Part shown: positions 16,798-33,834 of the stretch, piece by piece
Numbering within the stretch: the first letter of the stretch is position 1
Layout: every line of letters starts with the position of its first letter
Sequence record: PQ349265.1
Strand: one strand, 5' to 3'
DNA: 64,000 bases
Origin: Escherichia phage CJY920
Translations under genes and position numbers: made by a program
Notes under the pieces: generated by a model
What the model was told of the DNA's origin: nothing
The model's input: the letters and a program-made list of their open reading frames with translations, nothing else
Database searches by the model: none

Positions 16798-18172
<1,375 letters not shown>

Positions 18173-18426
18173 TAATTGAGGCCTGAGTATAAGGTGACTT
18201 ATACTTGTAATCTATCTAAACGGGGAACCTCTCTAGTAGACAATCCCGTGCTAAATGTTCTTTTGAACTAAATGCCTAACGACTATCCCTTTGGGGAGTA
18301 GGGTCAAGTGACTCGAAACGATAGACAACTTGCTTTAACAAGTTGGAGATATAGTCTGATCTGCATGGTGACATGCAGCTGGATATAATTCCGGGGTAAG
18401 ATTAACGACCTTATCTGAACATAATG
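18173..18426 (+). ncRNA. group I self-splicing intron in td, ORF-less (about 254 nt)
   Basis: Starts TAATTGAGGCCTGAG..., contains core GTAGGGTCAAGTGACTCGAAA and GATATAGTCTGATCTGCATGG, ends ...CTGAACATAATG; no ORF inside. Confidence 0.8.
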
Positions 18427-23656: not shown

Positions 23657-24331
23657 TGAGTACAGTTTTTAATACTAAACAGGTCGATGTTTTAAAAGAA
23701 CCTATGTTTTTTGGTTCAGGTCTTGGTATTGCGCGTTATGATATTCAACGGCATCGAGTATTTGAAGAACTTATTGAACGTTCGCTCTCGTTTTTCTGGC
23801 GTCCGGAAGAAGTAAACTTGATGATGGATGCTGCACAGTTTAATAAGCTTCCTCAGTATCAACAAAATATTTTTACTAATAATCTGAAGTATCAATCATT
23901 ACTTGATAGTATTCAAGGTCGTGCGCCGTCTGCTGTACTTATGCCATTGCTTTCAGACCCAAGCCTTGATACATGGGTTGCTACATGGACTTTTAGTGAA
24001 ACTATTCACAGTCGTTCATATACTCATATCATGCGAAATCTTTATACTGATCCATCGAAGGTATTTGATGAGATTGTACTAGATGAAGCTATCATGAAAC
24101 GTGCTGAATCTATCGGTCGCTATTATGATGATGTTCTGACTAAAACCCGTGAATGGGAAAATGCTAAAGAATTTACAGAACTAGCTAAAGAATCTCCTGA
24201 TGCTGTTTTTCGTTTAAATCGAGCTATTAAACAAGAAGCCGAAGCTAAACGTGCTTTAATGAAATCTCTTTACCTCTGTTTGCATGTTATCAACGCATTG
24301 GAAGCTATTCGTTTTTATGTATCTTTCGCGT
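23656..24331 (+). CDS. nrdB: ribonucleotide reductase small subunit, exon 1
   Basis: ...NALEAIRFYVSFA then T of a split Cys codon; R2 signature as in E. coli NrdB. Confidence 0.85.
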
Positions 24332-24640
24332 AAAATGCGCCTTTAAGCAGTAATGCTTATCGAAAACTCCTTTAATTGCTGGAAAATCCAGAAATGGAAA
24401 ACTAGCAGCCAAGGTTTTGCTTGCACCTTTAATTAGTATCATATTATAAATATGATTATACTTTTAAGAGGATGCACAATTGCAAAGCAAGGTTCAACGA
24501 CTAGTCTTCGGACGTAGGGTCAAGCGACTCGAAATGGGGAGAATCCCTCTGGGATTGTGATATAGTCTGGTCTGCATAGTAATATGTAGCAGTTCATAAG
24601 AGAACGGGTTGAGAATTAGCGAGCTCAATCGAACATAACG
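24332..24640 (+). ncRNA. group I self-splicing intron in nrdB, ORF-less (about 309 nt; boundaries within a few nt)
   Basis: Core GTAGGGTCAAGCGACTCGAAA and GATATAGTCTGGTCTGCAT paralogous to the td intron core; ends ...GAACATAACG; no ORF inside. Confidence 0.7.
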
Positions 24641-31898: not shown

Positions 31899-32234
31899 AT
31901 GTCTGAAGTACAACAGCTACCAATTCGTGCTGTCGGTGAATATGTTATTTTAGTTTCTGAACCTGCACAAGCCGGTGATGAAGAAGTTACAGAATCAGGA
32001 CTTATTATCGGTAAACGTGTCCAAGGTGAAGTTCCTGAACTGTGTGTAATTCACTCTGTTGGTCCTGATGTTCCTGAAGGTTTCTGCGAAGTTGGTGATT
32101 TGACTTCTCTTCCAGTTGGTCAAATTCGAAACGTTCCGCATCCTTTTGTAGCTCTGGGTCTTAAGCAGCCAAAAGAAATTAAACAAAAATTCGTTACTTG
32201 TCACTATAAAGCTATTCCGTGTCTTTATAAGTGA
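31899..32234 (+). CDS. 31: gp31 co-chaperonin (GroES-like), 111 aa
   Basis: [61 protein letters not shown]...; 111 aa as T4 gp31. Confidence 0.85.
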
Positions 32235-32381
32235 TATAAATAATAATATGAATTGGGTGTCGGAATAATAAGTTAACCGAACAATTCTACGTGGTAGTCT
32301 ACAACTGAGAGATCTGTCGAAAGAAGATGAAATTCAGAAGAACGTGACTACCGAGTTTTAATCTCTAACGAGAATTTTTAA

Positions 32382-32630
32382 ATGATTAAACAATTACAAC
32401 ACGCTCTTGAACTGCAACGAAACGCATGGAATAATGGTCACGAAAACTATGGTGCATCTATTGATGTTGAAGCCGAAGCTCTTGAAATCCTGCGTTATTT
32501 CAAACATCTGAATCCTGCTCAAACTGCACTAGCTGCCGAGCTTCAGGAAAAAGATGAACTTAAGTATGCTAAGCCTCTGGCTTCTGCTGCACGAAAAGCA
32601 GTTCGTCACTTTGTGGTAACACTGAAATAA
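32382..32630 (+). CDS. rIII: RIII lysis-inhibition accessory protein (82 aa)
   Basis: 82 aa; MIKQLQHALELQRNAWNNGHENYG...; position after gene 31. Confidence 0.8.
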   Translation: MIKQLQHALELQRNAWNNGHENYGASIDVEAEALEILRYFKHLNPAQTALAAELQEKDELKYAKPLASAARKAVRHFVVTLK

Positions 32631-33028
32631 TTTATTGGAGAGTCACTGCCTTAGTGTGAAGTTAAAACGAGGAGCCGTCGAACTGTCTGATTAATGATTT
32701 GCGAATCATTATAGTTTTAAGACCCCGGCAGTTTTACGGTGTACCTCTTGAATGTTATTCTTATAGCGGCAAGTGCATGCTACCCCGAGGTGATGGCCAA
32801 TCGGGAGTACGCCTCAAGGCCTATATATCCATCAGTATATATCTTATCCTCGAGAAATCGAACCCGGAACCTTTAAGCTAACGGTGTGCAACAGATAAGA
32901 GCTATAAGGTATGATGACGGGTTTATGGTTATCCTGGTCGTTAAATATCCAAAAACCTATGTTCCCCTTGAGGGCTTGCGCAGGCAATGCCAATAAGTCC
33001 TGCATTTTCATTTAAAAGAGAATTTATA

Positions 33029-33205
33029 ATGGCAAAACAAGCTAAAGCAAAGAAAGCAGTTGAAAAGAAAGTTGGTGATTCTAAACGCGCTGGTTACAAG
33101 CGTGGGTCGAACTCTCGTATCAATCAAACTGTTGAGAAGATCATGCGCCGAGCACGTGCGGTTCTTCGAGATGATGCTTCTCGTTTTGGTAAGCAGAAAG
33201 CATAA
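33029..33205 (+). CDS. small highly basic protein (58 aa), function unknown
   Basis: MAKQAKAKKAVEKKVGDSKRAGYKRGSNSRINQTVEKIMRRARAVLRDDASRFGKQKA; SD-like AAAAGAG; followed by a terminator. Confidence 0.4.
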   Translation: MAKQAKAKKAVEKKVGDSKRAGYKRGSNSRINQTVEKIMRRARAVLRDDASRFGKQKA

Positions 33206-33210
33206 GTTGA

Positions 33211-33236
33211 GGACTCCTTCGGGAGTCCTTTTTTAT
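33211..33236 (+). terminator. intrinsic terminator
   Basis: GGACTCC-TTCG-GGAGTCC hairpin followed by TTTTTTATTTT. Confidence 0.75.
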
Positions 33237-33258
33237 TTTCCAAAGATTGCACAAAGTT

Positions 33259-33291
33259 GTTTACAGTATGGTTCCTTTGTGATAGTATTAT
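33259..33291 (+). promoter_or_regulatory. early promoter
   Basis: GTTTAC 33259-64 and TGATAGTATTAT -10 region. Confidence 0.5.
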
Positions 33292-33315
33292 CTTACACAA
33301 ACAAAGGAGAATAAA

Positions 33316-33366
33316 ATGAAAACGATTAATCGGGTTACGGTCATTGGGCTGATGTTGAAATTATAA
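33316..33366 (+). CDS. 16-codon upstream ORF (MKTINRVTVIGLMLKL) with strong SD, candidate leader peptide
   Basis: AAGGAGA SD 5 nt upstream of the ATG; stop lies 9 nt before the SD-less ATG of the NADAR-like ORF. Confidence 0.35.
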   Translation: MKTINRVTVIGLMLKL

Positions 33367-33375
33367 GTATTGAAA

Positions 33376-33834
33376 ATGTCTGAGCTAGAAATAAGAAGCA
33401 ATTTTAGATGGCCATCATGTGCATTAAGCAATTTCGCCCAATGGCCTTTCGTTATGGATGGTATCCAATTTGGAGGTCTCGAAGGATTCCTCCAAGGATG
33501 TAAGGTGAAAAATGTTGAACAGCAAAGACGTATATTTGGGTTATCCGGGCTTGCCGCCCAACAAGCTGGAAGGTCTTATGCTAGAGCTCAGGACCGTGGC
33601 ACGTTGTTCTGGCTTGGAACTCCGTTTTCAAGATATTCCGAAGCATGGAAAGAATTATACACAAATGCATATTTTGAAGCAGCGATCCAAAACAGGGGTT
33701 TTCGTGATGCATTACAAGCCTCGAAAGGAAAAGTTTTGAAGCACAGCATGGCTAGTGGTCTAACAAAAGATGATACAATACTAACCGAAGCTGAATTTAT
33801 TGATGTGTTAAACCTATTAAGAGACTCTCTATGA
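33376..33834 (+). CDS. NADAR (YbiA/DUF1768-like) domain protein, 152 aa
   Basis: Motif LSNFAQWPFVMDGIQF...EGFLQGCK parallels E. coli YbiA FSNFAAWPIKVDGKTW...EHYFQAQK as recalled; ORF-track start is TTG 33370; ATG at 33376. Confidence 0.55.
   Translation: MSELEIRSNFRWPSCALSNFAQWPFVMDGIQFGGLEGFLQGCKVKNVEQQRRIFGLSGLAAQQAGRSYARAQDRGTLFWLGTPFSRYSEAWKELYTNAYFEAAIQNRGFRDALQASKGKVLKHSMASGLTKDDTILTEAEFIDVLNLLRDSL

Follow-up and report, generated by a model that had tools for sequence, protein, structure and literature searches.

The overall goal of our analysis was to determine whether the non-coding gap downstream of rIII in a T4-like phage encodes a structured RNA. We found that the center of this gap contains a 151-nt element (32759-32909, + strand) with a predicted multi-helix RNA fold that is supported by compensatory changes and matches no described RNA family. 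The element occurs in about 400 T4-like phages of enterobacteria, is absent from T4 as one clean unit, and is also present in an unrelated 76-kb phage, where it is inserted into a ToxI-like RNA. In the T4-like phage it lies near a degenerate ToxI-like unit at the start of the same gap. ToxI is the RNA antitoxin of the ToxIN abortive-infection system. We have high confidence in the structure and distribution of the element. Its function is inferred, and our tentatively favored model is that it is a stand-alone RNA that binds a partner as a counter-defense decoy.

The rIII-30.9 gap is non-coding and GC-rich

We analyzed a 64,000-nt stretch of Escherichia phage CJY920 (PQ349265.1), referred to below as the window. 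It is a T4-like (Tequatrovirus) segment with its genes on the + strand: cd, 31.2, 31.1, gene 31 (31899-32234), rIII (32382-32630), the gap (32631-33028), and gene 30.9, which begins with an ATG at 33029 and ends at 33205. A strong terminator follows at 33209-33240, then an early-type promoter at 33260-33288, and then the 30.3, 30.2 and 30.1 genes and DNA ligase. The gap is 398 nt. Its GC content is 0.422 compared to 0.360 for the window, at the 94th percentile of 398-nt windows, and that of the central element is 0.489. A scan for promoters and terminators detected no sigma-70-like promoter within the gap (one match, 32603-32631, straddles the rIII stop codon) and no terminator, the first being that after 30.9.

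The observation made in the initial annotation, that about 390 bp of GC-richer sequence after rIII has no convincing ORF and contains local hairpins, was confirmed. The only ORFs are a 60-aa TTG ORF (32699-32881), a 45-aa GTG ORF and a 55-aa minus-strand ORF. Both inverted repeats that it named exist. TCTTATC (32842-32848) and GATAAGA (32894-32900) form a helix (P4, below) in which 4 of 7 pairs have compensatory changes, and GCAGG (32980-32984) and CCTGC (32999-33003) form a conserved hairpin.

Its interpretation, a possible structured RNA or gene remnant, was partly supported. The structured RNA reading is strongly supported by the analyses below, and one of the two inverted repeats is a covarying helix of that RNA. 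The gene remnant alternative is not supported. Some GenBank records annotate short hypothetical ORFs here, in addition to the 60-aa ORF of the window. However, among 22 distinct homologous sequences, stop codons occur in nearly every one of the six frames (one frame is open in one phage), indels of 1, 2, 4 and 7 nt break the frame, substitutions keep base pairs rather than codons, and no protein-level similarity was seen. We consider a frameshifted remnant of a protein gene, or a small protein gene, very unlikely. The initial annotation also pointed to a T-loop-like string on the minus strand, although no cloverleaf could be drawn. This hint is wrong. The string, GGGTTCGATT, is the complement of AATCGAACCC (32856-32865), which on the + strand is the 3' half of hairpin P5 plus the start of P6, and G-U wobble pairs and GNRA loops place the RNA on the + strand. 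The initial annotation did not recognize that the unit is discrete and closed by its own stem, that it is absent from T4 and present in an unrelated phage, or that the start of the gap resembles a worn copy of the ToxI antitoxin RNA.

A sharply conserved core within the gap

BLAST of the gap against 50,697 phage records matched 1010 of them, which share the flanks of the gap. One sub-stretch behaved differently from the rest. Positions 32767-32901 are 91-96% identical in phages of other genera (Jiaodavirus, Marfavirus, Karamvirus, Moonvirus and Kanagawavirus), 85% identical in Aeromonas phage PS49, and 70% identical in EcS1. In a separate comparison with rIII, identity of the element to the window was 89-95% in five genera, 83% in PS49 and 70% in EcS1, whereas rIII in the same phages was 71-76% identical at the DNA level and its third codon positions were about 50% identical. 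Part of the high identity between genera may reflect recent exchange rather than constraint, because the neighboring gene 30.9 is also 86-87% identical between Tequatrovirus and Jiaodavirus.

The core was present in 407 GenBank phage records and in 19 of 47 rIII-bearing IMG/VR contigs, with one copy per genome, and thus in about 40% of T4-like enterobacterial phages. A covariance model search with filters off detected no weaker relatives in the rIII-bearing phages that lack the element, and none were detected beside ToxI-like units of other phage families. T4 lacks approximately positions 32758-32909 as one clean deletion, but retains rIII and 30.9. Metagenome hits were all T4-like. There were no bacterial copies in 185,579 species genomes scanned with exact patterns, or in BLAST searches of all complete E. 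coli genomes and of PLSDB plasmids. Because the searches of the large collections used exact patterns, divergent relatives elsewhere could have been missed. A search of viral contigs with the pattern CGGCAAGNGCATG..ACCCGG gave more than 100 hits that were all chance matches in GC-rich coding DNA (our loci L034-L139; L numbers designate individual loci in our collection). The additional hits of a two-part pattern in viral contigs, metagenomes and genomes were also due to chance.

Covariation supports a predicted four-way junction with a kissing loop

The folding energy of the single sequence was no better than that of shuffled sequences (z = -0.41), and single-sequence z-scores were uninformative on both strands. 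The evidence for structure therefore comes from comparison between phages. RNAalifold on 21 distinct sequences (alignment A1) predicted six helices, with compensatory double changes in 15 of 39 pairs. In this alignment 99.1% of cells were paired, and the 15 double-change pairs compared with 4.3 ± 1.4 in shuffles. The 47 G-U cells in this count would be A-C mismatches on the other strand, indicating that the RNA reads in the same sense as the genes. Three additional features were found by inspection and then tested: a loop-loop pairing, a divergent member (L196) that supplied missing compensatory changes, and a closing stem, P0. The complete model, counted on 17 distinct sequences, has 50 pairs in 8 helices, with 95.4% of cells paired. 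Twenty-nine pairs had double changes, compared to 12.6 ± 2.0 in shuffles (0 of 500) and 6-10 in slid controls, and every helix had at least one such pair. The covariance model scored 171 bits over 32764-32902 in the window and 99 bits in L196.

In the predicted architecture, P0 closes a nearly linker-free four-way junction of P0, the P1-P2 arm, hairpin P3 and P4. The 5' strand of P0 (TCTTATAG, 32759-32766) pairs with 32902-32909 (CTATAAGG). The sequences flanking the core differ between phages but pair with each other in every phage: CATATTA/TAGTATG in EcS1, AAACAG/CTGTTT in phage PKM.Lu.22.1 (PKM), TAAA/TTTA in Klebsiella-type phages, and 10 bp in L020 (permutation p < 0.0005). All 7 P0 pairs that were counted had double changes. 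P1 is formed by GGC (32768-32770) and GCC (32819-32821), and a C-G pair becomes U-A in L196 and U-G in L160. P2 is a long hairpin arm (32779-32812; 5' strand 32779-32790, 3' strand 32797-32812, with bulges) in which 7 of 12 pairs had double changes and G-C alternates with G-U at the top pair in about half of the sequences. P3 is a hairpin (32822-32841; 32822-32828 paired with 32835-32841) with double changes in 4 of 7 pairs.

The P4 domain (32842-32900) opens into a three-way junction. P4 (32842-32848 paired with 32894-32900) had double changes in 4 of 7 pairs, P5 (32850-32853 paired with 32858-32861, usually with a GAAA loop) in 3 of 4, and P6 (32862-32866 paired with 32882-32887) in 1 of 5 (G-C to A-U in L196). 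The stretch GCTAACGGTGTGCAACAGAT is invariant in the 21 sequences of alignment A1, with one change (C to T) in L196 that is compensated across P6. The apical loop of P2 (GAUGG, 32792-32796) is predicted to pair with the P3 loop (CCAUC, 32829-32833). This kissing loop is a perfect 5-bp match in all 23 distinct sequences (L024 was read from alignment A1), in three forms: GAUGG/CCAUC, UAUGG/CCAUA and AAUGA/UCAUU. Two of the five pairs had double changes and 100% of cells paired. About 60 positions in junctions and loops are invariant (including AAG.GCAU, ACCCGGA.CC and GCUAACGGUGUGCAACAGAU), while the stems change by compensatory substitution.

The element matches no described RNA family

We compared the element to known RNAs using Rfam 15 (4227 models, including all riboswitch, ribozyme, tRNA, tmRNA and sRNA families). 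The only hits in the window at the gathering score were two group I introns (RF00028) elsewhere, at 18163-18378 and 24313-24589. With permissive filters and E ≤ 10 over 32200-33400, there were no hits within the gap, and a scan of seven related loci at E ≤ 1 also gave none. ARAGORN detected no tRNA or tmRNA in the window on either strand. Like tRNA, the element has a stem that closes a four-way junction and a loop-loop contact between arms, but there is no T-loop or anticodon loop on the + strand and no CCA end, and the arms that touch are neighbors rather than the first and third.

The T4 stable RNAs rnaC and rnaD (species 1 and 2 RNAs) are also small non-coding RNAs of T-even phages (120-140 nt) without an assigned function. 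They are located in the tRNA cluster and differ in sequence, and a covariance model search that included that T4 locus (L168) gave no hit at E ≤ 1. PeSL cassettes of T4-type phages (Arbiol et al. 2010, PMC2839356; Comeau et al. 2014, PMC4122927) are likewise short conserved non-coding modules that shuffle between intergenic positions in variable regions of T4-like genomes. However, PeSLs are an early promoter plus a terminator-like stem-loop of about 50 nt, whereas the scan found no promoter-like or terminator-like site within the gap proper (the nearest clear ones are the terminator at 33209 and the promoter at 33260), and the element is a large multi-helix fold. Purine and lysine riboswitch aptamers are built on junctions with loop-loop contacts, and resemble the element in general architecture, with a closing stem, invariant junction bases, variable covarying stems and a covarying kissing loop between neighboring hairpins. 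The element matches no Rfam riboswitch, has no conserved expression platform and no consistent downstream gene, and its topology is a four-way plus a three-way junction. The nearest analogies to the element are pseudo-ToxI of phage PhiTE (below) in proposed function and in context, junction-type riboswitch aptamers in architecture, and the orphan T4 stable RNAs in status.

Searches of the literature on T4-like phages, rIII and 30.9, on structured phage RNAs and on the invariant sequence strings found no description of the element, although the computational catalogue of phage RNA candidates by Fremin et al. 2023 (PMC10690425) may list it. We regard the element as a new RNA family.

The element moves as a unit between unrelated phages

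The element is present at 84.5% identity in PKM, a 76-kb Grimontviridae phage unrelated to T4. In a comparison of the whole PKM genome with the 64-kb window, it was the only shared sequence at either the DNA or the protein level. No protein partner appears to move with the RNA, as its PKM neighbors are an unknown protein (phrog_6599) and a sigma factor, and no PKM protein has a relative in the window. Salmonella phage 7-11, of the same family, has the same locus, in which the space between a phi32_40-like gene and an ECF sigma factor gene contains only a ToxI-like unit and a terminator. In PKM, the element, with its own P0 stem, is inserted in the 5' tail of that unit, between the AAAUUC tail and the AGGUGA body. 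The T4 deletion removes the same P0-bounded unit.

The patchy distribution, the clean absence from T4, the movement between unrelated phages and the inverted repeat formed by the termini could reflect a selfish or neutral insertion, or a DNA-level site (origin, recombination or endonuclease site) with no RNA function. We think this is unlikely. The terminal repeats differ in sequence between phages and include G-T pairs, so it is pairing that is conserved and not a protein-recognition sequence. There is no target-site duplication, the G-U cells are tolerated on one strand only, loops and junctions are invariant while neighboring third codon positions are saturated, and there is one copy per genome.

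It is also possible, though unlikely, that the element is a small self-cleaving or otherwise catalytic RNA of a new class that cuts the polycistronic transcript or excises itself. It is a compact multi-junction fold with invariant junction bases and its own closing stem, its removal would restore an intact ToxI-like unit in PKM (judging from 7-11), and self-cleaving ribozymes are known in phages. However, it matches no ribozyme family in Rfam even at E ≤ 10, no conserved candidate cleavage site was identified, and P0 sequences vary freely. Any catalysis is conjecture on present evidence.

ToxI-like units and other modules in the gap

A short module recurs in these gaps. It is directly 5' of the element in Klebsiella-type phages and PEi20, directly 3' of it in PKM, and immediately after the rIII stop codon in Tequatrovirus and Mosigvirus. 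The copy in phage Mineola matches toxI arrays on 67 small mobilizable enterobacterial plasmids at 91-94% identity, with 3-10 copies each. In pNMEC-O75B the copies form an array of 5.6 x 36 nt (AGGTGATTTGCTACCTTTAAGTGCAGCTAGAAATTC) directly upstream of a ToxN/AbiQ-family toxin gene; this array is toxI. Single ToxI-like units occur in 200 phage records from several families. One is Pectobacterium phage PhiTE (Blower et al. 2012, PMC3475682), which encodes a mimic of the ToxI antitoxin of the type III toxin-antitoxin system ToxIN and whose record annotates the unit as the ncRNA pseudo-ToxI and a "weak antitoxin".

The copy in the window (32632-32671) is the positional orthologue of well-kept copies in ATK47, L021, Mineola, PEi20 and PKM (alignment A4) and, as in PhiTE, is in non-coding DNA of a phage without toxN. 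It is heavily decayed, matching ToxI at only about 17 of 36 positions, and has lost the GAAAU cleavage motif. A profile scan found one copy in the window and one per related locus, in contrast to the tandem units of toxI (5.5 copies) and PhiTE (1.5 or more). As read by eye from alignment A4, without a formal count, the stem UGC/GCA of the pseudoknot covaries (TTGC/GCAG, TCGC/GCGG, TCAC/GTGA), and the GGU/ACC pairing covaries in PEi20 (AGU/ACU) but is reduced to GG/CC in the window. Any antitoxin activity of these T4-like phage units would be by analogy to pseudo-ToxI. We found no paper noting ToxI-like units in T4-like phages. Guegler et al. 2023 (PMC10853763) attribute the resistance of T4-like phages to ToxIN to the protein TifA and do not mention one.

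The 151-nt element does not appear to be derived from a toxI array. It is four times larger than the ToxI unit, with a junction-based fold rather than a 36-nt pseudoknot, and its local alignment to six tandem ToxI units was no better than dinucleotide shuffles (p = 0.2 for the window). The element of the window does share the words AAGTGCA, TGCTACC, AGGTGAT, AGAAAT and ACCTTTAAG with ToxI, on the same strand and in scrambled order. Shared 6-mers cover 30 of 36 ToxI positions, far above dinucleotide shuffles but only about the 99.9th percentile of real windows of this AT-rich genome, and they cover only 6-14 positions in divergent members. We treat this unexplained similarity as a lead and not as evidence.

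The remaining sequence of the gap consists of small conserved hairpins, some with compensatory changes. A hairpin at 32692-32711 (TAATGATT-TGCG-AATCATTA) is conserved in T4-type gaps and has a compensatory change in L160 (TATCGATT/AATCGATA). A hairpin at 32916-32939 (GACGGG...CCTGGTC, module C) has a compensatory change in L021 (GGCGAGG/CCTGCC), and the same module is upstream of the element in Klebsiella-type phages. Two small hairpins at 32964-33003, CCCC-TTGA-GGG (32964-32974) and GCAGG/CCTGC (32980-33003), are conserved across T4-type gaps, with a G-U variant in L021. These modules occur in a different order in other genera, and none has a counterpart in E. coli genomes or plasmids.

Possible functions of the element

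Our comparisons establish that the element is a discrete RNA domain, predicted to fold independently, whose fold and loop and junction sequences are under strong constraint, and that it is accessory, dispensable, patchy in distribution and horizontally mobile. It is in a region that also contains a ToxI-like unit. In contrast, that the RNA is made as part of the rIII-30.9 transcript, that it functions as a folded RNA that binds a specific partner, and the identity of that partner are inferences from sequence. Transcription would begin at promoters upstream of rIII, where there is a T4 late-promoter consensus (TATAAATA, 32235-32242), and would continue to the terminator after 30.9.

We tentatively favor a counter-defense or host-takeover decoy that neutralizes an RNA-binding host protein, as pseudo-ToxI does for ToxN. 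An accessory, patchy, horizontally moved element beside a known RNA anti-defense element fits such a role. However, the element also occurs without an adjacent ToxI-like unit (Merlin, PG7, PS49 and EcS1), so the link to ToxIN is by neighborhood only.

Because the element has no promoter or terminator of its own in T4-like phages, it may be that it acts only in cis. A cis-acting element controlling stability, processing or translation of its transcript (rIII upstream, 30.9 or a ToxI-like unit downstream), for example as a nuclease-resistant block or a riboswitch-like sensor, remains possible and is nearly as likely as the decoy model. The element is often 12-35 nt after a stop codon, the whole gap is filled with conserved hairpins, and in PKM and Klebsiella-type phages the ToxI-like unit is between the element and another stable hairpin or terminator, as if it were being protected. 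On the other hand, the flanking genes differ completely between T4-like phages (rIII and 30.9) and PKM (phrog_6599 and the sigma factor), T4 retains rIII and 30.9 without the element, no alternative pairing or expression platform is conserved downstream, and about 60 invariant bases plus a covarying kissing loop are more than a simple nuclease block needs.

T-even phages are among the best-studied genomes in biology, yet this RNA has no family, no name and, in the literature searched, no paper that prints its invariant sequence, which may be because T4 itself has lost it. The evidence for its fold is unusually complete for a computational find. It is more conserved than the genes around it, is dispensable, and crosses between unrelated phages on its own, as counter-defense and host-takeover factors do. 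Natural phages with and without the element exist, including public BASEL phages such as AlbertHofmann and Paracelsus. It is possible, although doubtful on present evidence, that the element is the first member of a new class of phage RNA, an autonomously folding, mobile domain that inactivates a host immunity protein such as an RNA-binding abortive-infection nuclease, and that with the ToxI-like unit it makes the rIII-30.9 gap an RNA anti-defense island. A still bolder possibility is a new small ribozyme that removes itself from the RNAs into which it inserts. Known phage counter-defenses are nearly all proteins, and the ToxI mimic is the classic RNA exception. A second, larger RNA of this kind would open RNA-based immune evasion as a wider theme. 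If the element is instead a sensor or a ribozyme, it would be a new class of either.

Additional RNA motifs and ToxI-like units

We found a second conserved RNA motif of about 60 nt in the 5' UTR of rIII (window 32293-32352). The motif consists of three nested helices capped by a GAAA loop, with conserved internal loops UACAAC and AAGAACGU. It has 16 pairs, and 8 of these have compensatory double changes in 6 distinct sequences. In Klebsiella-, Karam- and Moon-type phages, the same motif lies in the 5' UTR of gene 30.9 instead. There was no match to this motif in Rfam. Two group I introns on the + strand of the window, at 18163-18378 and 24313-24589, reached the Rfam gathering score (75.7 and 71.7 bits).

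Well-preserved single ToxI-like units were found in 200 phage records of several families. These include units in the loci from Salmonella phage 7-11 (L218, positions 899-945), the T5-like phage Kenya-K36 (L219, 901-939), the Kuravirus XT32 (L217, 901-940), and the Mosigvirus ATK47 (L003, 2267-2308). One copy is between tRNA-Ile and tRNA-Met in a T5-like phage, and another is between the terminase and portal genes in a Kuravirus. Mosigvirus ATK47 keeps a near-intact copy after rIII. Work on the ToxIN resistance of T4-like phages credits the protein TifA and does not mention these RNAs (PMC10853763).

We also compared the structured element (window 32764-32902) to the 36-nt ToxI unit. The element shares five exact ToxI words (6-9 nt), in scrambled order and on the same strand only, that together cover 30 of 36 ToxI positions. 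This amount of sharing is very unusual compared to shuffled sequences. However, it is at about the 99.9th percentile when compared to real windows of this genome, and it is weak in divergent members of the family.

Sequences flanking the structured element

A strong intrinsic terminator is located after gene 30.9 (33209-33240), and is followed by a sigma-70-like promoter (33260-33288). Downstream of the promoter and ahead of the 30.3-like gene, there is a 16-codon ORF with a strong Shine-Dalgarno sequence (33316-33366, MKTINRVTVIGLMLKL).

Gene 30.9 (33029-33205) encodes a very basic protein of 58 amino acids that has no Pfam or PHROG family. A small basic protein encoded right after an RNA-rich gap could, judging from sequence and position alone, be an RNA binder. 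The gene is 86-87% identical between this phage and Jiaodavirus/Marfavirus phages, although rIII next door is only 71-76% identical. This difference points to mosaic exchange of this stretch. In addition, Mosigvirus ATK47 has an unrelated stretch of about 55 nt (L003, positions about 2490-2545) at the exact position where the structured element sits in the window, and the site seems to accept different inserts.
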